DNA of 64,000 bases from an uncultured Cytophagia bacterium (GTDB lineage Bacteria > Zhuqueibacterota > Zhuqueibacteria > Oleimicrobiales > Geothermoviventaceae), in assembly GCA_964644845.1 (NCBI GenBank), contig CAZXXS010000097.1, positions 153,838 to 217,837 on the forward strand, given 5' to 3'. Each line of letters opens with the position of its first letter. The stretch's first letter is position 1. Shown here piece by piece: positions 1-43,695 of this stretch. The position numbers and the translations under genes are program-made. The notes under the pieces are model-generated. The model was not told the DNA's origin and did not search any database. It worked only from the letters and a program-made list of their open reading frames with translations.

Positions 1-708
1 TTTTTTTCGGGCATTCGCCCAGGTAAGGCCATTCGTGGTGCGTTGTGGACGTGCGGAGCGGTCGGCCTGCGCCAAAGACGCGGTGGGCTTTTCACGGTTG
101 GTTGCAGAAATGGAGCGGCATGACGCTTTCGCTCCCGAAAAGCAGAGATCACAAGCGTGCGCGCGTACACAGATTTTGCAAGAGCGGGTAGATCGCTAGA
201 CACGCGTTAGGGAACGCGGTTGCCCCTCTCGGCATGCCACGTGAGGCTGCGCGGCTAAAAGGCTAAGAGCAGCGTAACGACGGGTTTTGTCACCTTTTAG
301 TCTTTGTCTGCCGTGCCGCGGGCATCAGGCTGTTTGGGCCCTACCCGAAGGGATTCGGAGTGAGAAGTTTCGCCTGAACCTGGATCCAAAAGGCCGAACC
401 GTTGGATGACCGAAGGGTAGGGGACTGACGATGGGGCACGACTGTTCACCTTTGACTACTTGCACGGAGTCGTTTGTTGTGGGGGTCAACCAACCAGGGT
501 AACGGTTGTGGCCCGTAGTGAGAGCGAAAAAGTACCGAAAGGCCGCTTTTGTTACGGGGCGCATTTTTTCCCGGATCTGTCCCGCGTCGGAGTTGCTTCC
601 GGTTTTGTTTGCGATCCGGGGTTTACCAGCCCAAAGCGCACAACGCCGGGTTCCCCTGTGCGAAGAACCCGGCGTTGCCTGCCGTCTTGGGAAGCGGACG
701 GTGTACGC

Positions 709-1185
709 CTAAGTGAAGATGATCTGGGCTCCTGCTGACACTTCGTAGAACTGCCCCACGGTGATGATGTCGTCCACCTCGTCGCAAAAATCCTCCCGTT
801 TCAGATGGAACATGTCCACTGTGGCTTTGCAGGCGTACAATTTTGCCCCGGCGTCGTGGATCATCTCGATGAATTCGTCCACCGGTGGGATGTCCAGCTT
901 TTCCATTTCCCGTTTCATCATGATCGTAGCAAGCGCGGACATCCCCGGCAGGATGCCGATCAAGCTGGGGATGTGCATGGCTGGATTGCCAACTGTTGCC
1001 ACTTTGAGTTTCTTCATGCGCTTTTTCACGATCGCGTCGAGGCCGAAAAAAGTGAAGAAAACGTTGGCCTCGATGCCTTCCATGCGTGCGCCGTTAGCCA
1101 TGATGAGTCCGGGGTAGACCCCCTCGAGCGACCCCTTTGAGATGATGATCGACACTTTCTTGATGCGGTCCTCGTTTGTAGGCAT
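709..1185 (-). CDS. DsrE/DsrF-like sulfur-relay family protein
   Basis: ORF 709..1221 translated. Sequence from MPTNEDRIKKVSIIISKGSLEGVYPGLIMANGARMEGIEANVFFTFFGLD resembles DsrE/DsrF/DsrH-like proteins. Start moved to the internal ATG at 1185, which follows a GGAGGAAACC RBS. Confidence 0.75.
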   Translation of the reverse strand: MPTNEDRIKKVSIIISKGSLEGVYPGLIMANGARMEGIEANVFFTFFGLDAIVKKRMKKLKVATVGNPAMHIPSLIGILPGMSALATIMMKREMEKLDIPPVDEFIEMIHDAGAKLYACKATVDMFHLKREDFCDEVDDIITVGQFYEVSAGAQIIFT

Positions 1186-1213
1186 GGCGGTTTCCTCCTT
1201 GAGGCAGGTGAAC

Positions 1214-1531
1214 TTACACACAACCTTGTGGCTTGGGTAGCCCTGCGATCTTAGCGGCTTTTTTCGCCGGACCGCCCGGAAAAAGGCGGTACAGCTCTTT
1301 TACAGGAACCCCGCCGGTATTCTTGAGGCGCCGGATGGATGGCGCGGTGCCTTTTTCCTGGTACTCCTTACGCATGAAATGGATCACCTTCCAGTGTGCC
1401 TCTGTCAGTTCTCCGATGCCTTCCTCTTTAGCGATGGCTTTGGCAAGTTCCTCGTCCCAGTCGGCCTGGTTTACCAGGTAACCTTCTTCGTCTACTTCTA
1501 CTTGCCTGCCGTTGAAGTCCTTAACTGGCAT
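1214..1531 (-). CDS. TusE/DsrC-family sulfur-transfer protein
   Basis: 105 aa ending ...GLPKPQGCV. The C-terminal Cys-Val tail with a second Cys upstream matches the DsrC/TusE family. GGAGGAAG RBS before the ATG. Confidence 0.8.
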   Translation of the reverse strand: MPVKDFNGRQVEVDEEGYLVNQADWDEELAKAIAKEEGIGELTEAHWKVIHFMRKEYQEKGTAPSIRRLKNTGGVPVKELYRLFPGGPAKKAAKIAGLPKPQGCV

Positions 1532-2249
1532 GGGTAACTTCCTCCGTGTTTGTCGTTCGCAGTGTTGAATCCGTTGTGGCTGCCGTTTCGTTGGCGACCA
1601 GGTTCTTCAGAAATTGGATGCCAAACGCGAGCCCCCGCCGCATTTCTGGAGTCCTGAACTCTTTGAAAAGGCGCCGGTACGAGATTTCCTCGTCCACGCT
1701 GATGGTGAGGTTCTTGTACACGGAAACGGCGTTGTTGATGGTTTCCAGCATGTCTGGCTGCGTGAGATTGCGGACGGTTGTTAGGATGGTAACGATGTTC
1801 TCACCCAAAAGCCGTACGTCTTCGACAGTGAAGGCGGTAACCACTTTGTCCAGCACTTTCGCGAGTTCGCTGAAAAAAGCGAAGTAGCCCTTCCGGTCAA
1901 GTTCGTCCAGTGTGGCCAGAAGATCGAAGAAGGCGTCCCGTGCGATTGGTTTCGCATCCTGCAGGAAGTCGTTGGCGCTTTCCAGCTGGTCCAAGGTGCG
2001 CGCGAGATTCCGCACATTACGAAGCAGCTTCTTGCCAAGGTGCCACAGATCAGACGCGTCGAAATGATGGGCTACCTCGTCAAGCTCAACTACAGCGGTT
2101 AGGAACATGTCTGTAACAACGCGGCTGAGGTCTTCCTTCAACTCCTGTGCTTCGCGTTCGCGCCTTCGTTGCAGAGCCAGCTGTTCGGTGACGAAGTCGA
2201 GCTTTCGGTTGATTTCTGCCAGCTGTTTCTCGAGACCGTTTCCACTCAT
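1521..2249 (-). CDS. DUF1641 domain protein
   Basis: 242-aa protein with the composition and pattern of DUF1641. It overlaps the downstream TusE start by 11 nt and the upstream SQR stop by 4 nt, so it sits in the operon. Confidence 0.6.
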   Translation of the reverse strand: MSGNGLEKQLAEINRKLDFVTEQLALQRRREREAQELKEDLSRVVTDMFLTAVVELDEVAHHFDASDLWHLGKKLLRNVRNLARTLDQLESANDFLQDAKPIARDAFFDLLATLDELDRKGYFAFFSELAKVLDKVVTAFTVEDVRLLGENIVTILTTVRNLTQPDMLETINNAVSVYKNLTISVDEEISYRRLFKEFRTPEMRRGLAFGIQFLKNLVANETAATTDSTLRTTNTEEVTHAS

Positions 2250-3481
2250 GCTACCCGCCTCTTTCCTGCCATGTTCATCTGCGCCTCGATCGGTAACTCT
2301 GCACCTTTGAGCAGCAGGTTCCAGTACATCCAGCGGAACATCATCTTGCCCCAGTGATTCATCTTTGTCTCCTCAAGAAGCGAGAAGGGACCGATTCCCG
2401 GTAGGGGAAACTTTCCCGGCAAAGGTTCGACATCGTAGTTGAAATCAATCAGAATGCCTTTCCCGAAACCGGACTCGATGAAACAGTTAGCATGCCCGTC
2501 GAACTTGGGCAGGAGCGGACGTTTGTCGATGGCTCGCAGAATGTTTTCGAACAGTACCTCGGACTCGAAATGGGCCACAGAACCCGCTTTCGAGCTGGGC
2601 AAGTCTGTGGCATCCCCGAGCACGAAAACGTTTTCGTAGTTCTTCGCCTGTAGGGTGTGCTTGTCGGTCGGGATGAAATTCAGCTCATCACCCATTCCCG
2701 AGCGCGCAATCACCTCGTCGCCCATGTTCGTCGGGATGGGTACGAGTAAATCGTATTCGATTTCTTGCTCGTCGTAGGAGATGATTTTCTGCTTGTCCGG
2801 ATCTACGCGTTCAACGTTGAAATCCGGTACCAGCCGGATGTTCTTTTTTTCAAGGAAGTTGCCCAAGAACTTCGACGCCAACGGTTTTGTGAAAGCGCCC
2901 GGGAGCGGCGTAACGAAAATGATCTCCACTTTGTCGCGAATGCCCTGTTCGGTGAACCACCAGTCGGCCAGAAACACGAATTCCAGGGGCGCCACTGGAC
3001 ACTTGATGGGCATTTCCACAATGTTCAACACCATTCGCCCGCCTTCCCAGTACTTTAGGAAATTGGCGAGACTTGTTGCCCCATCGATCGTGTAGAAGTC
3101 GAAGATGTTCTGTCTCCAGCCCCCTTCCAGCATCCCTGGTGTTTCCTCGGGGTGAATTTTGGAACCGGTGGAGATGATCAAATAGTCGTACTCCAACGTT
3201 TTGCCGTTCTCGAGCTTTACTCGACTTTTCTCTGGCTCGATGACTTCGATGCCGGACATTTCCACATTCACACCAGCGGGTAAAAAGTCACGCTTGGGCT
3301 TGATGACGTCGTTCCGGTTGTAAATGCCGAAGGGGATGAAGAGAAAGCCGGGCTGGTAGTAGTGGACCTCCTCTTGATCCACGATGGTAATGTCCCATTC
3401 GAGTGGATCAAGAACAGGCCTCAACTTATTGGCCATGATGGTGCCGCCAGTGCCAGCTCCGAGAATCAGAAGCTTCTTCAT
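2246..3481 (-). CDS. sqr: sulfide:quinone oxidoreductase-like FAD-dependent pyridine nucleotide-disulfide oxidoreductase
   Basis: 411 aa. N-terminal MKKLLILGAGTGG Rossmann motif, conserved cysteine context IKCPVAPLEF and C-terminal cap domain typical of the SQR/FCSD family. GAGGAGAG RBS. Confidence 0.75.
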   Translation of the reverse strand: MKKLLILGAGTGGTIMANKLRPVLDPLEWDITIVDQEEVHYYQPGFLFIPFGIYNRNDVIKPKRDFLPAGVNVEMSGIEVIEPEKSRVKLENGKTLEYDYLIISTGSKIHPEETPGMLEGGWRQNIFDFYTIDGATSLANFLKYWEGGRMVLNIVEMPIKCPVAPLEFVFLADWWFTEQGIRDKVEIIFVTPLPGAFTKPLASKFLGNFLEKKNIRLVPDFNVERVDPDKQKIISYDEQEIEYDLLVPIPTNMGDEVIARSGMGDELNFIPTDKHTLQAKNYENVFVLGDATDLPSSKAGSVAHFESEVLFENILRAIDKRPLLPKFDGHANCFIESGFGKGILIDFNYDVEPLPGKFPLPGIGPFSLLEETKMNHWGKMMFRWMYWNLLLKGAELPIEAQMNMAGKRRVA

Positions 3482-4143
3482 CGTTGTTTCTCTCCTCGTA
3501 ATTCTTTGTCCGACAAAATCTTGCGTTGTTTGTTCCTGGACCTCTCGCCCAGCACCGAAGTGACATCCCTATTGTGTCATGTCTTGTACGCCGAGCCGCC
3601 TGCCGAGCTGGGCGATCTAAAGCAAATGCTCTGCGTTCGCGCTCGGGCTCGCCTGGCTCAGGATGTTGCTGTTCTTGTGTTTGAGGCGTGCAGTCGGTTG
3701 CCACCGATTGAAGCCTTTCACGGGCGAGGCAATCTTGCTGTTCACCCGAACCCGAACGGGCAAAAGTTAGTAAATAGAAGCAACAATTGCAACTAAAATC
3801 AGATGCGCACAGCAATACTAACCAGTAGCACGTAGTGTTGTTGTTAAGAACCCACGAAAGAGAATGCGAGAATCGGAAGATGCCTGCTTTTCTGTTGACG
3901 TTTGTTGACGCCCGAGCGAAATGGCTCTCACTTGCGGGCTGGTGGCGTGGCCAGGTTAGGAGCCCCCTGAGGCCGCTATTTTTCCCGTGTGGATCCAGAG
4001 TTTGGCTAAGCAGGGTGAAAAAGGCTTTGTAGCAGCTCTATTTTTGAACTCGCCCTGGCAGCTTTGCGCCGGAAATGGCTCTGAACTTCACTTCCTGGGT
4101 CGTTTGGAGACTTCCCAAAATTCCCTCGGCTCTTTTCGTAGCC

Positions 4144-4212
4144 AAACCGCCTTCGGACGGCGGTTTTTTGACGTAACGCGGGGATTGGATCCCCGGGCGA
4201 AGGGGCGTCTCC
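4144..4212 (+). repeat. 69-nt direct repeat copy R1: intrinsic-terminator-like hairpin (AAACCGCC-ttcggac-GGCGGTTTTTT) plus second hairpin CGGGGAT-tgg-ATCCCCG
   Basis: Read directly from the sequence. About 91% identical to the copy at 4598..4666. Confidence 0.8.
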
Positions 4213-4450
4213 GATTCCCATTTAGCCGCAGAGAGAGGCATCTCCGAATCCCCATTCATCCCCGCATCTCCTTCACCGACTACGAGATCGTGCGGAGAAA
4301 ATCGCAAGGCGACCCAGGCATCGAACGCTGAGGGGTACGAGGTGACGCGACATTGCTGGCGGCGGTCTGGATTCGCGAGCGTTTTTTGGCGCAGCAGAAT
4401 GAGTGCGGCTGCTGTTTTGCGCGTCCATCTTCGCGGGCGCGCTTGGTACG

Positions 4451-4505
4451 CCGGGGACTGAAGTCCCCGGCTGCGTCAGGTGGAAACCGGCTGAAGCCGG
4501 TTTTG
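4451..4505 (+). repeat. related double-hairpin unit (CCGGGGA-ctgaag-TCCCCGG then AAACCGG-ctgaag-CCGGTTTT)
   Basis: Same two stem types as R1/R2 but in the opposite order. Both loops are CTGAAG. Confidence 0.7.
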
Positions 4506-4597
4506 CTTGGGGTGTACTTTGCAGCTCAGCGCGGAGGCCGTCTTCTGGTCGTGCGAGGTTTCGGTTCTCCCCGTGAGGTGATGCATTTGCCGCGGGG

Positions 4598-4666
4598 AAA
4601 CCGCCTTCAGGCGGCGGTTTTTTGACGTAGCCCGGGGACTGGATCCCCGGGCGAAGGGGTGTCTCC
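4598..4666 (+). repeat. 69-nt direct repeat copy R2 (terminator-like hairpin plus GGATCC-containing hairpin)
   Basis: Aligns to 4144..4212 with 6 mismatches in 69. Confidence 0.8.
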
Positions 4667-4929
4667 AAATGCGCATTTGTTCCCCCATCTCCTCTCAGTG
4701 CAGCCAAATTTCGGGGTCTACCGTGCCGGGATTCCGGGCGTGCGAAGAAGCGGTTTTCACGTAACGCTGGTTGTGTTTCTTCTGCGGCGGAATGAACTCC
4801 GCCGTTGGAGAACTTGTCGTGCTCTTCGGCGAATGTGTTTGCGAAAGTGGTACTCAGGCGGTGGTTTTTTGCCTGCCTGGTGGTAAGTGGTTCCCCTGGG
4901 CCCGGGCTGAAAGGCTGAGGCAGGTCGGT

Positions 4930-5415
4930 TTAGGAGGTTTCTCCAGAGTGTTTTTCGGCATGGTCGGCCAAATGTTCGTCGGACCACAGTTCCATGGCGT
5001 GGATGAGATCCTCGAACGTGTCGACCACGGTCCCCAGAGATGGATTTTGGAGCAAGGCGAGGATCTGGCGGTGCATTTCGTCGTACTCGCGCGTCATTTC
5101 GGCGGCCAGCTTCCGGCCCTTCGGGGTCAGGTTTACAATCTTGAACCGTCGGTCGTCCTCTGGTTCGTGGCGTTCAACGAGTCCTTTTTTGCGCAGGTCT
5201 TCCACAATGCGGGTCAGGCGTGCCGGACTAAGGTTCATGAGCTCCGCAAGGTGCCTGATGGGTGAATTGCCCTCCTTCCACAGCGTGCGAAGACACCGGA
5301 ACTCGGCGACACGCAGTCCGTAACGTGCCGCGAAGTGCACCTGTCGCTCCTGGCATAGTTCGTAAAGACGCAGAACGAGATCAGACATGCGGGAGGCGTA
5401 ATCCTCGGTCATCAA
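4930..5415 (-). CDS. MarR-family transcriptional regulator
   Basis: 161 aa with a winged-helix MarR pattern (…LTPKGRKLAAEMTREYDE…). GGAGGA RBS. Confidence 0.8.
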   Translation of the reverse strand: MMTEDYASRMSDLVLRLYELCQERQVHFAARYGLRVAEFRCLRTLWKEGNSPIRHLAELMNLSPARLTRIVEDLRKKGLVERHEPEDDRRFKIVNLTPKGRKLAAEMTREYDEMHRQILALLQNPSLGTVVDTFEDLIHAMELWSDEHLADHAEKHSGETS

Positions 5416-5735
5416 GATCCTCCAGTTTTGACAGAGGTGTGGGAACGAATCAACGTTTGGCTGCGATGGGACTGTCGAAACCCGCGGGACTGCACACTGG
5501 CTTCTTCAATCAGATTTCTCACAGAGAGGCTACACAGAGGCGCTGCCACAAATGCTGACAGCCGTCCGCCAGGACTGCTGCACCTGAGCTTCGGTGGCCC
5601 GTTTTGTCGGACTCGCCGGAAAACGCGTGGTTCATCCCAAACTTTTGGTCCGGAAATCACACCCCGAATCGGTTCTGTTGGCCTGCAAGATCAAACAACT
5701 TGCAGAAACCGTGTGCGTTCCGTCAGGCCGCAAAA

Positions 5736-8453
5736 CTACTCGGATTGCGTTTGCTTGACCAATTCCTCCAGAACGGCCCGCAGTTTCTCGAGTTGTTCGC
5801 CGTACCCAGCCCAGTCCCCGTTGCGCAATCGGCGCATCGCTTCCTCGTAGTGCTGCATGGCTTCGGCGGCGAGTTCGCCTGTGCCTTGCGGGCTAATGGT
5901 GCCACCTGCGGGCACTGTTCCCACCTCACGCGGACGCTCAGTGCTGACTTCCGTAGTGCCGATAGCATCCTGTAAGGCCAGATCCAGTGTTTCGCGCATC
6001 ACGATCCGATTCTTGTAGGCCACGATCACGCGTTTCAGTTCCGGGAGTTGCCCATTTTCAGCGCGCAGGTACACGGGTTCCACGTAAAGCAGGACGCTAT
6101 CCACTGGGATGGCCAGCAGGTTGCCACGGATCACCTGGGACCCGCGTTGGCTCCACAAGGTGAGCAACCTGGAAATGTCGGGGTCTTGGTCAATGCGGGC
6201 CTCGATCTGCCGTGGGCCATAAACCAGACGCTGCTTTGGCAACATGTAGGCGAACATCTGTCCGTAGTTGGGAGGATCGCAGCGGGCGGCAATCCAGGCA
6301 ATCATGTTGTCCTTTTCCTTGGGAGTAAATGGAAGCATGAGGATGTACTCGCCATCCGGTTCGCCTGGCAACTGCATCAGCACGTAGTAAGGCTCCATTG
6401 GCTGCTCCGAGCCGGCGTAGACCTCGCGTGGAATTTGCCACACATCCTCCCGGTTGTAAAAAGTCTGTGGGTCACGCATGTGGTAAGTGGCGTACATGCT
6501 CGTTTGCACGGAGAAAAGACCTACAGGGTACCGAAGATGTCTGCGGAAATCGTCCGGAAGCTCGCTCAGGGGTTTGAACAGCTTCGGGAAAATTGCTGCG
6601 TAGGCACGAATGATCGGATCTTTGGGATCGGCGATGTAGAATGTGACATCCCCGTTGTAGGCGTCGACCACCACTTTGACGCTGTTGCGGATGTAGTTGA
6701 ACCTGTTCTGGTAAGGCTCGGAGTAGGGAAAAGTGCTGCTGGTTGTGTAGGCGTCTTCGATCCAGAAGAGACGGCCGTCTACAATGACCACGTAGGGGTC
6801 GCCTTCGTACTGAAGAAATGGAGCGATCGTGCGGATTCGCTCCGAGACCGTGCGGTGGTACATGATGCGGCTGTCACTGGTAAGGTAGCTGGTCAAGATG
6901 AGCTTTGCGCTCCCGAATTCGTACGCGAATGCAAGACGTCGCAACAGCGAACCGATCCTGACACCGCCACTTCCGGAATAAGTTGTGAACTTGTTCCGTT
7001 CGCCAACAGGGTAGTCAAATTCCTCCGTTGCGGTTTTCACGAGAGCGTATTCGGTAGTCTCTTCGCCGTAGTAAATGGCGGGCTGATCGAGCTTGATGTC
7101 GACGTTGATCACAGGCGGGATGTCTTTGATGAAGAAATAGGGCAACCCTTCCTCGGTAACCAGGTTCACAGGGTTCATCACAACGCCGTAACCGTGTGTG
7201 TATTTGAGGTGCAGGTTCACCCACGTTCTCGCCTGGGTGGGGATCTGGTCGTAGTTCAGCTCGCGGGCTGAGAGCATCACCTGGCGGTAGTCGTCTCCGA
7301 AGGTGTAGCGATCCACGTCCACGTCGTGAAAGTCGTAGTAAAGGCGAATTTCCTGTAGCTGGCTGTAAGTGGCGTGAAGTGGCCGCCAGTCCCACAGCCG
7401 CATGTTTCGCACCGTGGAGCGGTAGTTCAAAAGGTCGTTGTAGGTAATTGAGCCACTTGGGTCAAACCCTTTTTCTTCAACGGACTCGAGCCCGTAAGCT
7501 AAACGAGTCAGGCGAATGTTGTGGGCGATGTAGGGTTTTTCTTTTTCCAGCTCATTGGGTTCGACGACCAGTTTCTGGACAAGGCTCGGATAAATGCCTA
7601 CGGCGAGAACCAGCATGAGTACAAAAAGAGCGGTACCCGCTACCACAATTTTCCACCCACGTCTGGTGATGGCCAAGAGGATTCCCACAACGATCACCAG
7701 CGTGGCGATGACCATGATCCAGTAGGCTGGGAGCTTGGCGTGGATGTCGGCGTAACCCGCGCCGAACACGGCTCCGGTGCGTGAGTAGAGGAGCTGAAAA
7801 CGCTCCAACCAAAAACGTCCCGCGAGCACCAAGAGGGTCAACGCGGCTAAGATGGAAAGGTGAGCTTTTGCGATGGCCCGCAGTTCCCTGAGGCGACTCA
7901 AGAAACTGCCCCCGAGGAAGTAGATTACAGCGGAAAGCCCGAACGCGAGGATGAAGAGCCACATGAGCCAGGTTGTTCCCAGCACGTACACAGGTAGCGA
8001 GAACACGTAGAAGGCGATGTCTTTCCCGAACACTGGATCCGTGGCGCCAAACGGTTGACGCTTGAAGAAAGCCAAAATTTGCAGCCACCGCGTGGAGATG
8101 GCACCGGCGAAAATCAAACCGACGAAAAGCGCCGCCAGGGCTACAAGGGTTTTTTGCAGTTTGATGAGTTTCGGAATGGAGATGCTGACGTCATCCAGAG
8201 TGAGAACAATCCGCTGAGGAGCTGCCTTCAGGGCGAACCAACCGTTCAGGTAGAGAAAAAGGCTCGAGACGAAAAATCCCCCCAGGAAAAAAGCCCATTT
8301 TGCGGTCAGCGATTTCGTGTAGACGCTGAGGTACCCCAGTTTGGAAAACCAAATGGCATTGATGTACAGCCCTACACCGCTTCGCAGGAAGATCAAAATG
8401 CCCGCGATCGCTGCCGCAACAATCAGGCTTATTTTTTGACGGCGGTTCATGGC
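5736..8453 (-). CDS. UPF0182-family large membrane protein
   Basis: ORF 5736..8534. Start set at MNRRQKISLIV after a GGAGATACG RBS. About 7 N-terminal TM helices then a large soluble region, the characteristic UPF0182 architecture. Confidence 0.7.
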   Translation of the reverse strand, partial: AMNRRQKISLIVAAAIAGILIFLRSGVGLYINAIWFSKLGYLSVYTKSLTAKWAFFLGGFFVSSLFLYLNGWFALKAAPQRIVLTLDDVSISIPKLIKLQKTLVALAALFVGLIFAGAISTRWLQILAFFKRQPFGATDPVFGKDIAFYVFSLPVYVLGTTWLMWLFILAFGLSAVIYFLGGSFLSRLRELRAIAKAHLSILAALTLLVLAGRFWLERFQLLYSRTGAVFGAGYADIHAKLPAYWIMVIATLVIVVGILLAITRRGWKIVVAGTALFVLMLVLAVGIYPSLVQKLVVEPNELEKEKPYIAHNIRLTRLAYGLESVEEKGFDPSGSITYNDLLNYRSTVRNMRLWDWRPLHATYSQLQEIRLYYDFHDVDVDRYTFGDDYRQVMLSARELNYDQIPTQARTWVNLHLKYTHGYGVVMNPVNLVTEEGLPYFFIKDIPPVINVDIKLDQPAIYYGEETTEYALVKTATEEFDYPVGERNKFTTYSGSGGVRIGSLLRRLAFAYEFGSAKLILTSYLTSDSRIMYHRTVSERIRTIAPFLQYEGDPYVVIVDGRLFWIEDAYTTSSTFPYSEPYQNRFNYIRNSVKVVVDAYNGDVTFYIADPKDPIIRAYAAIFPKLFKPLSELPDDFRRHLRYPVGLFSVQTSMYATYHMRDPQTFYNREDVWQIPREVYAGSEQPMEPYYVLMQLPGEPDGEYILMLPFTPKEKDNMIAWIAARCDPPNYGQMFAYMLPKQRLVYGPRQIEARIDQDPDISRLLTLWSQRGSQVIRGNLLAIPVDSVLLYVEPVYLRAENGQLPELKRVIVAYKNRIVMRETLDLALQDAIGTTEVSTERPREVGTVPAGGTISPQGTGELAAEAMQHYEEAMRRLRNGDWAGYGEQLEKLRAVLEELVKQTQSE

Positions 8454-9562
8454 GTATCTCCTTGGCTCAGGGATTCCTGAGAAACCACTGCTTGTTGGCC
8501 TGAAAAATCGCGACTCTTGGGGAAGCCAGTGCACGAACTTGTTTGCTCAAGTGAAGGTACGGTAGAATGTTGAACGGAGCAAGGGCAAATTTTGCGTGTG
8601 CTAAACAATGCTCAGCTGAAATGTACTTGAGGGTGTGAGACGGTTTCAGGGACGCACTCTCCGTTTGGAGCGGTTGCAAGAACCCGTTTTTGCCTACGTG
8701 GTGGACGTCAAACGGAAAGGAGAGCTTGCGTCGGCTGACCGTTGCGCTTGGACGTTGGAACTGCGGTGGCAGTCGCTACGACCGATTTAGCGCATCAGAA
8801 AGAGACTGCAGCAGGCTGGAGGAGAGTGAACACAAAATTGGCCACGTCGTTCCCGGCGAGTCCCATTCAAACAGTGCTCATTCCCTGAATCTGGGGTGTG
8901 AACCCTGGGGAAAGCGGCAGGACCTCGACACTGATTGCGCGCGCTTCCGGCAGCGAACACCTCTCCACGCACGTGAGTGCTTTGCTACGGTACGAACGTG
9001 CGTAGGTAAGAGTCCCCTGTGGGGTCACGGTTTCGGGAAGTCGGGGAAAGGTGCTACTTGCCTCAGAGTCCACGAAGAAACGGCTACGTGGTGCACAGCT
9101 GGTGGCAGCTACTTTCAAGCGGCAGGGACTGTCCAAGCCCGAGGTCCCAAATTCCGGACGTTGTAAGTAAAGTGCACTGCCCAAGGTTGTTCCCAGTGAC
9201 AGGGTGTAGTAGCCTCAGAATGTAAGCAGGCGTTGTGGAGGGGTGGACGGAGTGGCGCGCCCGGATACCAGGGATCTCCCCATTTTTGCCTGTGAACTCG
9301 CCGACACCTCGGAGCGGCTTGGTTCCTGCTGGTAAAATTGGTTCCAGGACAGGAGCTGAAAGAGCGTTCTGTGTTTCCGGCGGGGCCTTCCGGTTCACGG
9401 GCGCTCTGCAGGCAGTCCGGGACTTCCAGCTCCCCCTGCTTGCAGGGGTAAGCCTGACCGTGCGGGCAAGGTCCGACTTCTGGGCACAGCGAAAGCTCAA
9501 CAGCAACCGTTACCTGCCGTGCCCCCAACGTGTTTGCGGGGAGACCCTCGCCCAGATACAGC

Positions 9563-9591
9563 TTGACAAATTGAAGGGCAATTCTTATCAT
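9563..9591 (+). promoter_or_regulatory. sigma70-like promoter (TTGACA-17nt-TATCAT)
   Basis: Exact -35 TTGACA at 9563-9568 and -10 TATCAT at 9586-9591 with a 17-nt spacer. It drives a roughly 180-nt leader or sRNA that ends at the terminator near 9770. Confidence 0.5.
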
Positions 9592-9742
9592 GAGCTTGAG
9601 CCGTGAGAGGTTGCGGATGGACGCACGAACAAGATGATGACTGGCCTGGTCAAGGGGACCTGTGTGGAGGCCCGCTCGATGTTTGTGTGGTGTTTAGTTT
9701 TGGGGTACCGTCTGTGGCTTGGTTTGCGCTTTGCCAGCTGAA

Positions 9743-9770
9743 GGACAGTCACATTTGGCTGTCCTTTTTT
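9743..9770 (+). terminator. intrinsic terminator/attenuator hairpin (GGACAG…CTGTCC + TTTTTT)
   Basis: GC stem followed by a T6 run, about 50 nt upstream of the aminotransferase AAGGAGG RBS. Confidence 0.5.
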
Positions 9771-9822
9771 GTTTCTGTTTTGCTCAGGGAACAAGGGACC
9801 TTTAACAAGCTAAGGAGGTGTC

Positions 9823-10992
9823 ATGAAATTCGCTGAGAGAATGAAGCGGCTTGGCACCGAGACAGCATTCGAAATGTTGGCGAAAGCCAAGGCTCTGGAG
9901 GCGCAGGGAAAGGAAATCATTCACCTTGAGATCGGCGAACCAGATTTCGACACGCCGCGCAACATCGTGGAGGCGGCCGTGCGAGCGTTGCGAGAAGGCT
10001 ACACACACTACGGCCCTGCGCCGGGGCTGCCAGAACTAAGGGAGGCCATTGCGCAAAATGCAGCCAAACGGCGGAACATTCAGGTAGGACCGGACAACGT
10101 TGTGGTTACACCCGGCGCGAAGCCGATCATGTTTTTTGGCATCCTCGCGTGCGTAAATGAAGGTGAGGAGGTGATTTACCCAAACCCGGGATTTCCGATC
10201 TACGAGTCAGTGATCAACTTCATCGGCGCGAAACCTGTGCCAATCCGACTCCGTGAGGAGCGTGAATTCAGTTTTGACGTCGACGAGCTCGCGAGCCTGA
10301 TTACTGACAAAACCAGGATGATTATCCTCAATTCGCCCCACAATCCCACCGGCGGCGTTCTGTCGAAAAGCGACCTGGAAGCCATCGCCGGAATGGTCCG
10401 GGGACGCGACATCTGGGTTCTGTCTGACGAGGTGTACAAGGACATCCTTTACGAAGGCGATTTTCTCAGCATTGCTTCCCTGCCGGGCATGGCTGAGCAG
10501 ACCATCATTCTCGACGGCTTTTCAAAGACCTACGCCATGACGGGGTGGCGCCTTGGTTACGGGGTGATGCCCGTTCCCCTGGCAGAAAAAATCGCCCGCT
10601 TGATGGTGAACAGCAATTCGTGCACAGCAACTTTCATTCAAAAAGCTGGTGTGGAGGCTCTCACGGGGCCGCAGGATGAAGCTCGTCGCATGGCCGAGGA
10701 GTTCCGCCGCCGCCGGGATGTGATCGTGGACGGTTTGAATCAGATCGAAGGGATTACCTGCCTGCGTCCACACGGGGCGTTCTACGTGTTCCCAAATGTC
10801 ACGGGCATCCCCATGGGCACGACGGAGTTGGAGAATTTTCTGCTCTACGAGGCAGGTGTTGCCAGTTTGTCCGGTACAGCGTTTGGCGCCTACGGCGAGG
10901 GCTACCTGCGCTTTTCGTACGCCAATTCGGTTGAAAACATTCAGAAGGCACTGGATCGCATGGCTGAGGCTCTCAAGAAGGTCCGCAAGTAG
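9823..10992 (+). CDS. pyridoxal-phosphate-dependent aminotransferase (aspartate/aromatic aminotransferase class I)
   Basis: 389 aa with class-I aminotransferase motifs (…SPHNPTGGVL…, SKTYAMTGWRLGY). AAGGAGG RBS. Confidence 0.85.
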   Translation: MKFAERMKRLGTETAFEMLAKAKALEAQGKEIIHLEIGEPDFDTPRNIVEAAVRALREGYTHYGPAPGLPELREAIAQNAAKRRNIQVGPDNVVVTPGAKPIMFFGILACVNEGEEVIYPNPGFPIYESVINFIGAKPVPIRLREEREFSFDVDELASLITDKTRMIILNSPHNPTGGVLSKSDLEAIAGMVRGRDIWVLSDEVYKDILYEGDFLSIASLPGMAEQTIILDGFSKTYAMTGWRLGYGVMPVPLAEKIARLMVNSNSCTATFIQKAGVEALTGPQDEARRMAEEFRRRRDVIVDGLNQIEGITCLRPHGAFYVFPNVTGIPMGTTELENFLLYEAGVASLSGTAFGAYGEGYLRFSYANSVENIQKALDRMAEALKKVRK

Positions 10993-11002
10993 GAGACGCA
11001 CA

Positions 11003-12097
11003 GTGGAACCGAAGAAGACCGCTCTTTACGAGGTTCACAAACAGCTCGGTGCGAAAATGGTTGAGTTCGCGGGTTACTGGATGCCCATCCAGTACCGCGG
11101 CATTTTCGAGGAACACAAACGTGTTCGAACGACCGTCGGCGTTTTCGACGTGTCACACATGGGCGAATTCCTTTTCAGGGGCGATTCCGCCTTGGATTTT
11201 CTGCAGTTCATGACGACAAACGATGTTGCCAAGTTGCACGTCCACCAGGCTCAGTATTCAACCATGTGCTACGAGAATGGCGGCATTGTGGACGATCTGA
11301 TTGTTTACCGGTTGCCCGACGGCTACATGATGGTCGTCAACGCTGCAAACATCAAGAAAGATTGGACCTGGCTGGCGGAACACAGGCCTGACGGCGTTGA
11401 AATGATCAACCGCAGCGAGGAGTTGAGTCTGATTGCCGTCCAAGGACGCTACGCCGAAGCCACCCTGCAAAAGATCACGGATCTCGATCTGTCCCAAATC
11501 AAGTACTACTGGCTGGACGAAGGGAAGGTGGCGGGTGTGGACGCAGTGGTGTCGCGGACGGGCTACACAGGGGAAGATGGTTTCGAAGTTTGTGTGGCCC
11601 GTGAGCAAACGGTGCCCGTCTGGGAGGCGATTTTTGAGGCCGGTGCGGAGTACGACATCGAGCCTGTGGGACTGGGTGCCCGCGACACCCTTCGACTCGA
11701 AATGAAATACTGTTTGTACGGCAACGACATCGATGAAACCACAAACCCGCTTGAGGCCGGTTTGGGCTGGATTGTTAAACTCAAAAAAGGGGATTTCATC
11801 GGCCGGGACGCACTTCTGAGAGTCAAAGAAGAGGGCCTGAAACGCAAGCTGGTTGGGTTCGAAGTCGAGGGACGAGCCTTTCCCCGTCACGGCTACAAGA
11901 TCCTGGACGAAACAGGTCGTGTTGAGCTGGGTTACGTGACCTCCGGTACGTTCTCACCCATGCTGCAGAAAAGCATTGGGATGGGCTACGTTTCCATCGA
12001 CTACGCCGAGGTGGGGACTCCCCTGCTTGTGGATGTCCGGGGGCGGAGGGCAAAGGGACAAATCGTGGAAACCCCATTCTACAAGCGTCCCTACTGA
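11003..12097 (+). CDS. gcvT: glycine cleavage system aminomethyltransferase T
   Basis: GTG start 10 nt after the upstream stop, after a GGAGACGCAC RBS. Strongly GcvT-like (…GVFDVSHMGEF…, TGYTGEDGFE). Confidence 0.85.
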   Translation: MEPKKTALYEVHKQLGAKMVEFAGYWMPIQYRGIFEEHKRVRTTVGVFDVSHMGEFLFRGDSALDFLQFMTTNDVAKLHVHQAQYSTMCYENGGIVDDLIVYRLPDGYMMVVNAANIKKDWTWLAEHRPDGVEMINRSEELSLIAVQGRYAEATLQKITDLDLSQIKYYWLDEGKVAGVDAVVSRTGYTGEDGFEVCVAREQTVPVWEAIFEAGAEYDIEPVGLGARDTLRLEMKYCLYGNDIDETTNPLEAGLGWIVKLKKGDFIGRDALLRVKEEGLKRKLVGFEVEGRAFPRHGYKILDETGRVELGYVTSGTFSPMLQKSIGMGYVSIDYAEVGTPLLVDVRGRRAKGQIVETPFYKRPY

Positions 12098-12135
12098 TCG
12101 GGCGGAATCGGGCAAATTGCGAGAGAGGCGCCGAG

Positions 12136-12873
12136 GTGGCTCAGCTCGAGGTCGTGCTTGTGCCGGGGGAGATTCGGCCCCGAGAATTGCGGGGACGTTT
12201 TGTCGTGGTGATCGATGTGCTGCGGGCCGGGACTTCGGTGGCTGTTGCGCTGGCCAACGGAGCACGCAAAGTGATCCCTGTGGCTGGCGTGCGGTCTGCC
12301 AGACAAAAAGCCGCGGCTTTGGGGCGCAGCAACGTGCTTCTCTGCGGGGAACGCAGCGGCGTTCGTTTGCCAGGTTTTGACCTTGGGAATTCGCCCCGCG
12401 AGTACACCCCGGAGCGAGTGGCCGGCCGTAACCTGGTGTTCACGAGTTCGAACGCCACCCGCGCTCTTGCGCGGACGCGTGAGGCCAAAGAGGTGGTTCT
12501 TGCTGGCCTTGTGAACGTCAGTCGCGTTGCGCAGAGCGCAGCTTCTTCTGATCTCGAAATTACGCTTGTTTGCGCTGGGCGGCTTGGGCGATTTGGCTTG
12601 GAGGATTTCTTGGCCGCGGGGCTCCTGGTAAAGGCCATCCGGCAAATACTGGCCTTGACCGACGATGACCTTGACGATGCCAGCAGAATGGCAGCGAACT
12701 TTGCCGCAGAGCAGCGGGAAGACCCGCTGGGGGTGCTTGCCGCTTCAACGCACGGCCGCTACTTGTGTTCGATTGGCTTTGAGGCTGATCTCCCCCTGTG
12801 TGCGGCTCTGAACACGGTCGACGTAGTCCCCACTTTCAACGGCGAAGCTCTTGTGCCAGGTCCTCGGGGGTGA
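12136..12873 (+). CDS. 2-phosphosulfolactate phosphatase (ComB) family protein
   Basis: 245 aa. VVVIDVLRAGTS motif typical of the ComB family. GTG start. Confidence 0.6.
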   Translation: MAQLEVVLVPGEIRPRELRGRFVVVIDVLRAGTSVAVALANGARKVIPVAGVRSARQKAAALGRSNVLLCGERSGVRLPGFDLGNSPREYTPERVAGRNLVFTSSNATRALARTREAKEVVLAGLVNVSRVAQSAASSDLEITLVCAGRLGRFGLEDFLAAGLLVKAIRQILALTDDDLDDASRMAANFAAEQREDPLGVLAASTHGRYLCSIGFEADLPLCAALNTVDVVPTFNGEALVPGPRG

Positions 12874-12977
12874 CGCAGTGCAAGCTCCTCCACTTAGGCC
12901 TTGCGTTTTGTTCTTTCACGGACTACATTTCGGTGTCACCAGTGTTCAAATCTTGACACAAATCTGGACCTTCCGAC

Positions 12978-13640
12978 GTGTCCAAACGGCGATTTGATCC
13001 GCGTGAAATTGATTGGTCCTTGTACGCAATCCTCGACCGTGAATTCATCGGCAACCGATCCTTCGGTCAGATCGCCGAGGCGGTGATCCAAGGGGGTGCT
13101 GGGATCGTTCAGTTGCGTGATAAAGTTTCTGGAAGCAGAGATTTCTACCTCGAGGCGCTTCAGGTCCGCGAGGTTACGCGAAACTTCGGGGTGCCTTTCG
13201 TCGTGAACGACCGTGTGGACGTGGCGCTTGCCGTCGACGCGGACGGTGTGCACGTGGGCTGGAGCGATTTGCCGCCGGAGGTCGTGCGTAGGCTGATTGG
13301 AAGTGAGCGACTGCTTGGACTGTCGGCGAGTTCCGAGGAGGAAGTAGACAAAGCGGTTTCGTACTCACCCGATTACCTGGGGGTCGGAGCCATGTTTGCG
13401 ACGGCCACAAAGCCCGACTACCCCGTTCCCGGCCCAGGTCTAATTGCGAAGGTGAGATCCAGGGTTGCTTGCCCGATTGTGGGGATTGGTGGAATCACGC
13501 CGGAAAACGCAGCCGCAGTTGTAGCAGCTGGGGCCGACGGAGTGGCGGTCATTTCGGCTCTGCTGAGCGCGCAGGACGTTAGAGAGCAGGCTAACCGCTT
13601 TGTTGAGGCCATCCGCCAGGTGAGAAAGGCTGAGAAGTAG
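12978..13640 (+). CDS. thiE: thiamine-phosphate synthase
   Basis: 220 aa. LYAILDR…VQLRDK…IGGI motifs typical of ThiE. GTG start. Confidence 0.8.
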   Translation: MSKRRFDPREIDWSLYAILDREFIGNRSFGQIAEAVIQGGAGIVQLRDKVSGSRDFYLEALQVREVTRNFGVPFVVNDRVDVALAVDADGVHVGWSDLPPEVVRRLIGSERLLGLSASSEEEVDKAVSYSPDYLGVGAMFATATKPDYPVPGPGLIAKVRSRVACPIVGIGGITPENAAAVVAAGADGVAVISALLSAQDVREQANRFVEAIRQVRKAEK

Positions 13641-13815
13641 CTGGGGAGTCCTGCGATTTTCCCAGCGGGGGAAAACACGCTGGTTCACTTTGAATGCGAT
13701 GCCCCGGCCGTTCCAAACGAGGGGTAGATTTCCCAAGCCGAGAACGAACGTGGTCAAGCTGCTTGCAAACCACGGAAAATCTGGTCCAGGTCAGGGGATC
13801 CTCTAACCGACGAAG

Positions 13816-16266
13816 TTGCGAGGTGAGAGACGTTTGCTGAGACGTCGTGAAAAAACGAGTGCCCAGCGTCAGCAGGAGATTTTCGGTCTTCTCTTGATGA
13901 CATTCGGTGTTTTTCTCCTGCTGGCCATGCTTACCTACGACCCGGCCGAGGTTCCCGGTAAGATTCACCCCGGTACCACCCGCAACGCCATGGGTTTCAT
14001 TGGCGCCTACCTGGCGCACTACGTGGTTCGCTACACGTTTGGCTACGCCGCTTTTACGATGCCGTTCCTTCTCATCGCCTGGGGATGGAACCGTTTCCGC
14101 CACAACGACCCTTCTGCTCTCGTCCGCTGGACACCGTACGTTTTGCTTCTCAGTCTTTACTTGGGAACTGTGATGGCTGTGCCCGAGGTGCTCAGGCCTT
14201 CGGCTGGGGCGCCGGATTACCGTCTGGGCGGCGCTTTTGGGATTGGACTCGGCCGCATCATGGTCACCTGGTTTGGGCTTGCTGGTACGGTGATTCTGCT
14301 TTTTGTCCTGGCGCTGATCTTGTTCTCGATGGCAACTCAGGTGAGTCTGTCTGCCTGGGTTTCGGGCGTTGTCGGCCTGTGGGCGGATTGGCGCATTTTG
14401 GTTGAAAGGGAGCTGAACCGCTGGAGACAGAGCAGGGTGCGAAAGCGTCTGGCTGAGCACGAGGCCGCCGAGGAGGCCTGGGAAGAAGAAGCCCCGGTGG
14501 AACGCGCTGCCGACGTTGGGTACCAGGAAAACGGGGAACTGGAGGAGGTAGAGCAGAATTTTGCGGCCCGCGCGGAGACTGAAGACATCAGTGAGCAGGA
14601 AGAGTTTGACAGCGAGCCCGGTGTTCTACCCTGGGAGCCAGGAACTGGTGAGGCAGCTATCGAAAGACCCGAACCAGTCCCGCCCAAGACGCCGCTTCGC
14701 CAGCTTGAGCTGTTGGAGGTAGAAGACGAAGTGCCGCCGCCGGCGGAAACGCCAAGTGGCGAGCCCTATTCCCCGGAGAACTACCGTTTTCCGCCCACGA
14801 GCGTTCTGGCGCTTTCTGAACCTCAGGATGAGCTGACGGACGAAGAACTGCGCGAGAACGCTCGGGTGCTCGAGCAGGCGTTGCTGGAATTTGGTGTTGA
14901 AGCGCGGGTGGTAGAAATTGCTCCCGGTCCTGTAATCACCCGCTTCGAGGTTGAGCCGGCGCCGGGGGTCAAAGTCGCTCGCATCCTCAGTCTTTCGAAT
15001 GACCTGGCCCGTGTGCTTCGGGCGTCGCGAATCCGAATCGTTGCTCCGATTCCGGGCAAGGCGGCTGTTGGCATCGAGGTGCCGAATCGCAATCCGGCCA
15101 TCGTAGCCCTTCGAGACGTAATCGAGTCCGAAGCATTCTTGAGTTCACCGTCGGTGTTGACGATCGCACTGGGAAGAACGATCTCGGGGAAGCCGTACGT
15201 TACGGACCTGGCGAAGATGCCGCACTTGCTGGTTGCGGGGGCTACTGGTTCGGGCAAGAGTGTCTGCTTGAACACGATCATCGCGAGCATTCTTTACAAG
15301 GCGCGTCCCGATCAGGTGCAATTCGTGATGATTGATCCCAAACGGCTGGAGCTCTCCATGTACAGCCGCTTGAAAGATCACCACGTAACCTACCTGGAGG
15401 GACTTGGCGAGGCTGTTGTAACGACGCCGGCGAACGCCATCTCGGTACTTCGTGCGGTAGAGTACGAAATGGAACGCCGTTACGGCGTTTTGTCGCGAGC
15501 TGGGGTACGTAATCTTGAGGACTACAACGACCGTGTGCGCCAGGGACGTGTGAAAGCCGAAGGCGACGAAGAACCGCAGCCTTTGCCCTACCTGGTGGTC
15601 ATCATCGATGAACTTGCCGATTTGATGATGACGGGCGCACGGGAGGTGGAAGAACCCATTGCCCGACTTACGCAGATGAGCCGTGCTGTCGGTATTCATC
15701 TTGTGGTCGCGACGCAGCGGCCCTCGGTCGACGTGATAACTGGGGTCATTAAAGCAAACTTCCCGGCCCGAATCGCCTTCCAGGTTTCTTCGAAAACCGA
15801 CTCGCGGACCATCCTCGACATGAACGGGGCCGAGAAGTTGCTTGGTCGTGGGGACATGCTTTTTCTTCCCCCCGGTAGCCCGGAACCTGTACGGGTTCAC
15901 GGCGCCTACATTTCAACTGATGAATCTGAGCAAATCATTGACTGGATCGCTGCCCAGCCGCCGGTTCCGAAGGAACCTCTTGTTGCGTTCCGGGAACAGC
16001 AAGGCGGTGCGGGAACCATGTTCGGAGCGAACGAGCAGGATCCCTTGTTTGAAGACGCCGCTCGGATCGTCGTGCTGACGCAACAAGGCTCCATTTCGAT
16101 CCTGCAGCGGAAATTGAAGATTGGTTACGCACGTGCAGCGCGACTGATTGATGCCCTGGAAGATGCCGGGATCGTTGGTCCGTTTGACGGCAGCAAAGCG
16201 CGCGAGGTACTGGTTGACCAGGAGGGGCTCATGGCAATGGGAATCGCGCCGTACGGTGAAAGCTGA
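13816..16266 (+). CDS. ftsK: DNA translocase FtsK/SpoIIIE
   Basis: 816 aa: N-terminal TM segments, a Pro/Glu-rich linker, Walker A (VAGATGSGKS), and a C-terminal gamma domain (winged helix). TTG start. Confidence 0.9.
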   Translation: MRGERRLLRRREKTSAQRQQEIFGLLLMTFGVFLLLAMLTYDPAEVPGKIHPGTTRNAMGFIGAYLAHYVVRYTFGYAAFTMPFLLIAWGWNRFRHNDPSALVRWTPYVLLLSLYLGTVMAVPEVLRPSAGAPDYRLGGAFGIGLGRIMVTWFGLAGTVILLFVLALILFSMATQVSLSAWVSGVVGLWADWRILVERELNRWRQSRVRKRLAEHEAAEEAWEEEAPVERAADVGYQENGELEEVEQNFAARAETEDISEQEEFDSEPGVLPWEPGTGEAAIERPEPVPPKTPLRQLELLEVEDEVPPPAETPSGEPYSPENYRFPPTSVLALSEPQDELTDEELRENARVLEQALLEFGVEARVVEIAPGPVITRFEVEPAPGVKVARILSLSNDLARVLRASRIRIVAPIPGKAAVGIEVPNRNPAIVALRDVIESEAFLSSPSVLTIALGRTISGKPYVTDLAKMPHLLVAGATGSGKSVCLNTIIASILYKARPDQVQFVMIDPKRLELSMYSRLKDHHVTYLEGLGEAVVTTPANAISVLRAVEYEMERRYGVLSRAGVRNLEDYNDRVRQGRVKAEGDEEPQPLPYLVVIIDELADLMMTGAREVEEPIARLTQMSRAVGIHLVVATQRPSVDVITGVIKANFPARIAFQVSSKTDSRTILDMNGAEKLLGRGDMLFLPPGSPEPVRVHGAYISTDESEQIIDWIAAQPPVPKEPLVAFREQQGGAGTMFGANEQDPLFEDAARIVVLTQQGSISILQRKLKIGYARAARLIDALEDAGIVGPFDGSKAREVLVDQEGLMAMGIAPYGES

Positions 16267-36642: not shown

Positions 36643-36672
36643 GCGAATCGGGGTGGTGGGGCGGCGGGGTTT

Positions 36673-36708
36673 AGCCCCGGTCCTGAGACACGGGCCGGGG
36701 CTTTTTTG
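36673..36708 (+). terminator. rho-independent terminator (GCCCCGGTCC-tgagaca-CGGGCCGGGGC + TTTTTT)
   Basis: 30 nt after the cargo gene stop. Seen directly. Confidence 0.8.
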
Positions 36709-41908: not shown

Positions 41909-43552
<1,644 letters not shown>

Positions 43553-43579
43553 GAAGCCGCAACACCCTGCAGTAGAAAG

Positions 43580-43618
43580 AAGCCCCGGAGCGCTGAGCGC
43601 TTCGGGGCTTTATTTTTA
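43580..43618. terminator. bidirectional rho-independent terminator between groEL(+) and gcvPA(-)
   Basis: 12-bp GC stem (GCCCCGGAGCGC-tga-GCGCTTCGGGGC) with A-rich 5' and T-rich 3' flanks. Confidence 0.8.
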
Positions 43619-43695
43619 CAGCGCAGTGGGGTCTTTACGGGAGCCGTTACGACGGGGCGGTGACGACGAAATCCGCTTGGTGCACCTTGCAGATC

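Follow-up and report, generated by a model that had tools for sequence, protein, structure and literature searches.

The intergenic region in front of an aminotransferase gene was analysed in a window of 64,000 nucleotides (nt), this window being the whole stretch taken from contig CAZXXS010000097.1 of an uncultured bacterium. The region contains a predicted sigma70-type promoter, a leader of variable sequence and a predicted intrinsic terminator, all of them located before the ATG of the aminotransferase gene. With modest confidence, we read the element as the promoter and 5′ leader of the aminotransferase-gcvT(-comB-thiE) operon, in which the promoter-proximal terminator would serve as an attenuator. 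The element is real, conserved and without an Rfam family, and it represents a familiar design in a narrow uncultured clade, not a new class of RNA. The features, in window coordinates, are:

9552-9562, forward strand: conserved block CCAGATAC plus 3 nt, just upstream of the -35 hexamer.
9563-9591, forward strand: predicted sigma70-type promoter, with the -35 hexamer TTGACA at 9563-9568, a 17-nt spacer and the -10 hexamer TATCAT at 9586-9591.
9598-9739, forward strand: leader body, with a predicted start near 9598, G/U-rich and C-poor, conserved neither in sequence nor in fold.
9740-9770, forward strand: predicted intrinsic terminator, with a 12-bp stem (9740-9751 paired with 9756-9767), the loop CATT and a T6 run at 9765-9770.
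9771-9822, forward strand: post-terminator 5′ untranslated region (UTR) of 52 nt, with the conserved GGGAACAAGGGAC and the Shine-Dalgarno sequence AAGGAGG at 9812-9818.
9823-10992, forward strand: aminotransferase gene, first gene of the operon, encoding a class I/II pyridoxal-phosphate-dependent (aspartate-type) enzyme of 389 residues (Pfam PF00155, E = 2.3e-68).
11003-12097, forward strand: gcvT, encoding an aminomethyltransferase (Pfam PF01571 and PF08669), 10 nt after the aminotransferase stop codon.

Loci for comparison were obtained by exact-protein look-ups of the closest database homologues, and removal of duplicates left eight lineages. The aminotransferase of the window is identical (100%) to those of loci L001 and L002. 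Its identity is 95% to L163, 94% to L175/L176 and to L178-L180, 93% to L181, 84% to L164, 82% to L165-L172 and 79% to L173/L174. Every relative found at 79% aminotransferase identity or higher carries both the promoter and the terminator with fixed relative positions. Their joint conservation indicates that the two elements are more than chance matches.

The promoter at 9563-9591 scores 11 of 12 against the consensus and is the sole promoter-like site in the consensus scan of 5000-15000. On both strands of the whole window, two sites reach 11/12 or better against 0.125 expected, and three reach 10/12 or better against 1.6 expected; the expected counts come from 40 first-order Markov simulations. 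All eight lineages have a -35/-10 pair with a 17-bp spacer in front of the aminotransferase gene. The hexamers are TTGACA/TATCAT in six of them and TTGATT/TAAAAT or TTGATT/TATCAT in the two most distant, with the variant TAGAAT in L171. The variant hexamers TTGATT and TAAAAT remain consistent with the sigma70 consensus. By its hexamers, their spacing and their conservation at orthologous positions, 9563-9591 qualifies as a predicted sigma70-type promoter.

The promoter spacer (9569-9585) holds the inverted repeat AATTG-N5-CAATT, which is kept in the window, L163, L175, L180 and L181 and is altered yet palindromic in L164. A repressor that overlaps the promoter could have its operator in this repeat. 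The block CCAGATAC is identical in the window, L163, L175, L178 and L181 and reads CCAGATC in L164. The stretch 9552-9562 is possibly an UP-like element or the contact site of a regulator.

The terminator hairpin, GAAGGACAGTCA-CATT-TGGCTGTCCTTT at 9740-9767, runs at its 3′ end into the T6 tract. With 12 pairs it is the best terminator-like match in the scan of 5000-15000, and its folding energy of -17.9 kcal/mol is comparable to those of the clear gene-end terminators at 36663-36702 and 43573-43612. A search with the pattern GGACAG-N6-14-CTGTCCYTT gave one match in the window and none in 100 shuffles. A GGACAG...CTGTCC hairpin followed by a T-run is found in all eight lineages, 52-85 nt before the ATG, with the core GGACAG/CTGTCC invariant in 11 distinct sequences. 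In the alignment, 97.7% of the cells in the helix are paired, against 33-68% in slid controls, and two of the pairs carry compensatory (double) changes. A conserved U.G wobble in the stem can pair only in the RNA of the forward strand. The strand-specific wobble and the compensatory changes argue against a palindromic operator acting at the DNA level. The stem-loop, the U-tract, the match to the transcribed strand and the compensatory change together characterize 9740-9770 as a predicted intrinsic (Rho-independent) terminator.

A first-pass annotation of the window had listed the promoter TTGACA-17-TATCAT at 9563-9591, a GC hairpin with a T6 terminator, the AAGGAGG ribosome-binding site of the aminotransferase about 40 nt further on, and an RNA of about 175 nt. 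All four hold. The promoter is read as such in the sequence and is conserved in the relatives, the hairpin (9740-9770) is the top match of its scan and is likewise conserved, and AAGGAGG is present at 9812-9818 before the ATG at 9823. The predicted RNA, 9598-9770, measures 173 nt in the window and 154-173 nt across the lineages. The annotation had also allowed for a chance match, that is, for promoter-like and terminator-like strings that co-occur without function. It is true that consensus scans always yield matches, and the 10-kb promoter scan gave fewer of them than shuffles did at a loose threshold. However, sites of 11/12 are expected about 16 times more rarely than they were observed, the terminator stem has compensatory changes, and both elements are conserved across lineages whose intervening DNA is randomised. 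The last point excludes a mere coincidence of strings, and we give that explanation almost no credence.

The position of the terminator raises the question of how the operon is transcribed. Scanning each lineage from +20 to the ATG gave no second sigma70-like promoter of at least 8/12, so expression of the operon should rely on read-through. The post-terminator UTR is 80-85% identical in the four closest lineages, whereas the leader body is only 50-63% identical. The lack of a second promoter, the conserved UTR behind the terminator and the strict linkage to the operon make a cis-acting leader the best supported reading.

A working model can be proposed on this basis. RNA polymerase with the primary sigma factor would start at the near-consensus promoter, whose geometry places the start near 9598. 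Most transcripts would stop at the hairpin and U-tract of 9740-9770 and release a leader RNA of about 173 nt. A read-through fraction would carry the conserved 52-nt UTR and its strong Shine-Dalgarno sequence into the operon. The body of about 135 nt would act as a spacer, its length and G-rich, C-poor composition being kept and its sequence and fold not. Control of read-through, if there is any, would have to lie outside the body and might be exerted at the terminator, either by a trans-acting factor or protein on the invariant hairpin or by a ribosome on an upstream open reading frame (uORF). The promoter would be an alternative control point, through a factor acting at the conserved spacer repeat. 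Read-through of the terminator may instead be constitutive.

The body separates this leader from most regulatory RNAs. Its identity to the relatives has to be set against 43-57% at the third codon positions of the aminotransferase. Between the window and L163, identity is 100% in the promoter, 62% in the body, 97% in the terminator, 85% in the post-terminator UTR and 57% at third codon positions; the corresponding values between the window and L178 are 86%, 53%, 81%, 81% and 53%. L178 and L181 are 81% identical in the body and 90% at the third codon positions. Insertions or deletions of 18 nt occur in the body even between genomes whose aminotransferases are 93-95% identical. The rate of evolution of the leader body is thus close to that of synonymous sites.

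Folding gives a similar picture. RNAalifold on 11 leaders keeps only the terminator and two trivial 3-bp stems, and the minimum free energy (MFE) folds of single sequences differ between lineages and share no architecture. The MFE fold of the window leader is a long irregular rod with a z-score of -1.1. Across the alignment 54.9% of the rod is paired, against 33-46% in slid controls, a figure that the window row inflates by construction. In folds of each leader cut off at the terminator loop, the 5′ arm was unpaired or without a consistent partner across the lineages, which means that no antiterminator is present. A property of the body shared by all lineages is its composition (G 0.33-0.38, C 0.19-0.25), which would disfavour loading of Rho and which is not found in the leaders of khpA and efp described below.

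Glycine riboswitches commonly sit upstream of gcvT. The position of the element and its architecture of promoter, leader, terminator and ribosome-binding site would thus suit a novel riboswitch, a T-box or another leader that senses a metabolite or tRNA and controls the terminator. The first-pass annotation had offered a riboswitch or attenuator leader, or a small RNA (sRNA), while finding by eye no likeness to the T-box, glycine, SAM, TPP or cobalamin consensus, and had called for an Rfam scan and a comparative alignment. The Rfam scan agrees with the lack of likeness. With cmscan, no family matched the whole window at gathering score, and the permissive scan of 9100-9900 (E <= 10) returned only asX2, STnc390 and miRNA matches at E values of 0.4-6.6, which align to the terminator hairpin and are at chance level. 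The alignment gave the conservation of promoter and terminator and the compensatory changes in the stem, and showed neither conservation nor covariation in the body. The architecture of an attenuator leader therefore stands, and the riboswitch does not, as its body would have to be conserved, a consensus structure would have to exist and an antiterminator would have to sequester the 5′ arm. The near-neutral divergence and the 18-nt insertions or deletions point the same way. Since neither its sequence nor its fold is kept, the body is not a ligand-sensing aptamer, and we consider a sensing leader of any such kind very improbable.

Individual candidates were considered as well. The glycine riboswitch (RF00504) resembles the element in lying upstream of a gcvT-containing operon and in that its expression platform can be an intrinsic terminator. 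It was rejected, as was any other Rfam riboswitch, for want of a covariance-model match and of a conserved aptamer-like sequence or structure. The gcvT operon in the clade of the window is accordingly not under a glycine riboswitch. The T-box leader (RF00230) was rejected because there is neither a cmscan match nor an antiterminator. About 35 nt before the terminator, the sequence GGGGTACCG at 9703-9711 resembles by eye the core of a T-box (GGTGGTACCGCG). We treat it as a coincidence; it is conserved in no relative (L163, L178, L164 and L165 among them) and has no support from the Rfam T-box model.

Searches for binding motifs in the leaders were negative. GGA motifs of the CsrA type are not enriched, with 5-7 per RNA against about 4-5 expected by hand counts. 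The leaders do not consistently contain TRAP-like (G/U)AG repeats, PyrR boxes or ops-like elements, and this leader shares no motif longer than 8 nt with those of efp and khpA.

The element might instead be an independent gene for a trans-acting sRNA of about 155-175 nt, with the operon served by leak-through or by a promoter that was not recognised. In favour of this are the strong promoter, the strong terminator and the lack of any open reading frame (ORF) under purifying selection, and the consistent G-rich, C-poor composition suggests a constraint on the RNA beyond that of a spacer. The hairpin and U-tail, often the protein-binding module of bacterial sRNAs, are the most conserved part of this RNA. 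However, no single-stranded seed or fold is conserved outside the terminator, and the body evolves at about the synonymous rate. The unit always lies immediately upstream of the aminotransferase gene and in the same orientation, despite rearrangement of the other flank, and no lineage has a candidate promoter downstream. In the distant relatives that lack the leader, the aminotransferase gene is fused into another operon and has no sRNA neighbour. An independent sRNA is less likely than a cis-acting leader, and we regard it as unlikely.

6S RNA (RF00013) offers a partial likeness, with about 170 nt, a strong sigma70 promoter and the rod-like MFE fold seen in the window. Unlike 6S RNA, this RNA diverges far faster and ends in an intrinsic terminator linked to the downstream operon. 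6S RNA and structured sRNAs in general were rejected, since no covariance model matches and the rod is not kept in the relatives. There is also a likeness to prematurely terminated 5′-leader RNAs and sRNAs derived from 5′ UTRs, in that the promoter of the downstream operon would give a short and abundant transcript ending at a terminator, with a possible secondary role in trans. Surveys of the Term-seq type catalogue such RNAs, and a sensing domain or seed is conserved in most of those that have been characterised. Unlike most of those, the present element conserves only the promoter, the terminator and the distal UTR.

Within the cis-acting leader, a further possibility concerns the ribosome. 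The candidate reading frame is:

9634-9741, forward strand: candidate uORF of 35 codons (ATG ATG ... TGA), with a weak Shine-Dalgarno sequence and a stop codon abutting the terminator stem.

The only conserved island in the leader body is a Shine-Dalgarno-ATG motif, ACGGAGAAATGCATGAC in L163, L175, L178 and L181, which consists of GGAG, six nucleotides and ATG. The ORFs that start from this ATG in the four loci have 28-33 codons and end with TGA or TAG directly before AGGGACAG. In the window ATGATG stands at the aligned place and GGAG is lost (ACGAACAAGATGATG). In L164 a Shine-Dalgarno sequence is followed by a TTG start and the stop is at the same position as in the other uORFs, and in L165 and L173 an ORF led by a Shine-Dalgarno sequence continues across the terminator. 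An ORF thus ends at the base of the stem in four lineages and passes through the stem in two. From aligned start to aligned stop the uORFs (33, 32 and 27 codons) differ in net length by multiples of 3, and this preservation of frame is suggestive.

These ORFs would permit ribosome-dependent attenuation. A ribosome at the uORF stop would cover the 5′ arm of the terminator and block the hairpin. Read-through would then follow from close coupling of transcription and translation, and termination from a lagging ribosome, the act of translation mattering and not the peptide. Such a model predicts that the body drifts neutrally and that no RNA antiterminator is present, both of which were observed. 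It also agrees with the conserved island, with the ORFs of 28-35 codons that stop directly 5′ of AGGGACAG (window, L163/L175 and L178/L181, and similarly L164), with those that pass through the terminator in L165 and L173, and with the length differences in multiples of 3.

Against it, stop codons are rare in every frame of the leader because the leader is A-poor, and whole frames are open by chance. Shuffles put the chance of an open frame at 0.26-0.5 per lineage; for L165 and L173, whose ORFs are longer, it is 0.12-0.19. The start codons of L164, L165 and L173 were chosen after the fact. The uORF peptides are not conserved, those of different groups being unrelated, and close pairs show a neutral-looking pattern of substitution; counted by hand, L178 and L181 differ by about 7 amino-acid changes against 3 synonymous codons. 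Having lost GGAG, the window would translate its uORF poorly. No candidate uORF contains a run of regulatory codons. The evidence for the uORF is not significant on its own, and it is suggestive only of a candidate.

We give ribosome-dependent attenuation a low probability. If such a device operates, expression of the operon would report the distance of the first ribosome from RNA polymerase, and thereby translational capacity or the supply of charged tRNA (e.g. Gly-tRNA). Neither an RNA switch nor specific regulatory codons would be needed, which would make it a very simple attenuator design. A ribosome acting as the antiterminator, with a uORF free of sequence constraint and a stop codon at the foot of an intrinsic terminator, is a speculative but possible device here. 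It would have arisen recently in a thermophilic KSB1-like clade, when the aminotransferase-gcvT pair left a ribosomal-protein operon.

A precedent is the pyrBI attenuator of E. coli, in which the ribosome physically blocks an intrinsic terminator and no RNA switch takes part. Both leaders have a promoter-proximal terminator about 150 nt into the leader, and the candidate uORF, like the short leader ORF of pyrBI, reaches or overlaps it. Neither needs an RNA antiterminator, and the window has U-rich tracts upstream of the hairpin. By analogy, a ribosome stopped at the uORF stop would cover most of the 5′ arm of the hairpin. Unlike in pyrBI, no pyrimidine genes follow and UTP-sensitive pause sites lack conservation, and the two leaders are not homologous in sequence. 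The uORF has weak statistical support, and in the window its Shine-Dalgarno sequence is degenerate. The attenuators of trp, his, leu and thr have the same order of promoter, short ORF (only a candidate in this leader), intrinsic terminator and biosynthetic or amino-acid operon, and a similar length of about 150-200 nt. They work through mutually exclusive 2:3 and 3:4 hairpins and runs of regulatory codons, and neither was found here. The trp/his type was rejected, since the candidate uORFs have no codon runs and there is no antiterminator hairpin.

Several points weigh against the attenuating leader itself. A promoter of a type invisible to a sigma70 scan could lie downstream of the terminator. 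Because no antiterminator or switch was found, "attenuator" may mean only a constitutive damping of the operon. A strong promoter with a strong terminator behind it, both of them conserved, fits an independent sRNA gene too. The start site, the efficiency of termination in vivo, the read-through and any regulation are predictions from the sequence, and the comparison covers about eight metagenome lineages in one narrow clade.

The genomic context bears on the linkage of the leader to its operon. The coordinates of gcvT match the gene call at 4181-5275 in the near-identical locus L001. A comB-like gene (2-phosphosulfolactate-phosphatase-like), thiE and ftsK lie downstream of gcvT. Homologues of the first gene are named aspartate aminotransferase or PLP-dependent aminotransferase in their sources. 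The upstream neighbour in the window, a divergent gene, encodes an UPF0182 membrane protein. The neighbour varies among the relatives, being UPF0182 in L163, L175 and L181 and pyrR (pyrR-pyrB-pyrC) in L165-L174. The changing neighbour and an insert of 930 nt on the same side indicate that the block of promoter, leader and terminator travels with the aminotransferase-gcvT operon.

The insert is a stretch at 8622-9551, between the upstream region of the UPF0182 gene and the promoter, with a GC content of 55-66%. It is also present in L001 (99% identical), and 47 nt stand in its place in L163, L175, L181 and L178. It ends 11 nt upstream of the -35 hexamer and has left the promoter-leader-terminator unit intact, the homology to L163 picking up again at 9552. 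The ORFs of the insert match no Pfam family, permissive scans of 9100-9900 and 8400-9600 gave no Rfam match in it, and it has no fold signal (z-scores +0.55 and -0.11). There is no plasmid match to the insert, nor does it have terminal repeats or a second copy in the window.

The leader is confined to close relatives. Broad scans of genomes and metagenome contigs with the aminotransferase yielded only homologues of 71% identity or less. The hairpin motif is in none of these, and the promoter-terminator pair is upstream of the aminotransferase gene in 0 of the 20 that were checked. In two relatives at 73-74% identity the leader is missing and the gene directly follows plsY or rpsP-khpA-trmD-rplS, which makes the leader specific to the clade of the window. 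In the latter arrangement (L183/L184, positions 1-3800, 73% identity, from hydrothermal and sediment metagenomes), aminotransferase-gcvT forms the end of the rpsP-khpA-trmD-rplS operon. This arrangement suggests that the aminotransferase-gcvT pair first left the ribosomal-protein operon and that its stand-alone promoter and leader arose afterwards.

The use of a canonical promoter has to be seen in the light of the host. The aminotransferase is 95% identical to a protein of a "Calditrichaeota bacterium" and 79% identical to one of a "candidate division KSB1 bacterium", and an identical one is encoded on a contig of the metagenome-assembled genome (MAG) GCA_054028295.1. These relatives make the host KSB1/Calditrichota-like, within the Fibrobacterota-Chlorobiota-Bacteroidota (FCB) group, and not a member of Bacteroidota. 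The earlier view that a sigma70 promoter would be unexpected in a Bacteroidota-like host does not apply to such relatives, and similar sites precede khpA and efp in the window:

40827-40799, reverse strand: sigma70-like site TTGACA-17-TATATT, 11/12, intergenic, about 220 nt before khpA.
48457-48429, reverse strand: sigma70-like site TTGACT-17-TATATT, 10/12, intergenic, about 245 nt before efp.

As these two, the other sites of 10/12 or better, are intergenic and face khpA and efp, canonical -35/-10 promoters and long leaders appear normal in this organism. We know of no promoter mapped experimentally in the KSB1/Calditrichota-like host lineage. The present element provides a comparative example of a canonical -35/-10 promoter and an intrinsic terminator forming a unit in an uncultured lineage of the FCB group, and it can be of use in annotating promoters, terminators and 5′ UTRs in KSB1/Calditrichota-like MAGs. 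Clear hairpin and U-tract terminators at the gene ends 36663-36702 and 43573-43612 show that the organism relies on canonical intrinsic terminators. One of them belongs to a very strong bidirectional terminator at 43573-43621, with -29 kcal/mol on the forward strand and -21 on the reverse strand, between the convergent ORFs 41939-43552 (forward) and 43696-45036 (reverse).

The three best promoter matches in the window all have leaders of 220-250 nt. The khpA leader (40827-40574, reverse strand) opens with a perfect GAAGGAGG-N7-ATG and a 14-codon ORF (MGRGPARPLISQPR), and it has no Rfam match. The efp leader (48457-48177, reverse strand) has no Rfam match and no obvious terminator. In the distant relative L183, khpA is directly behind rpsP, and no S16 gene was recognised in the window. 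The largest ORF of the window, at 24161-30343 on the forward strand, encodes 2060 residues.

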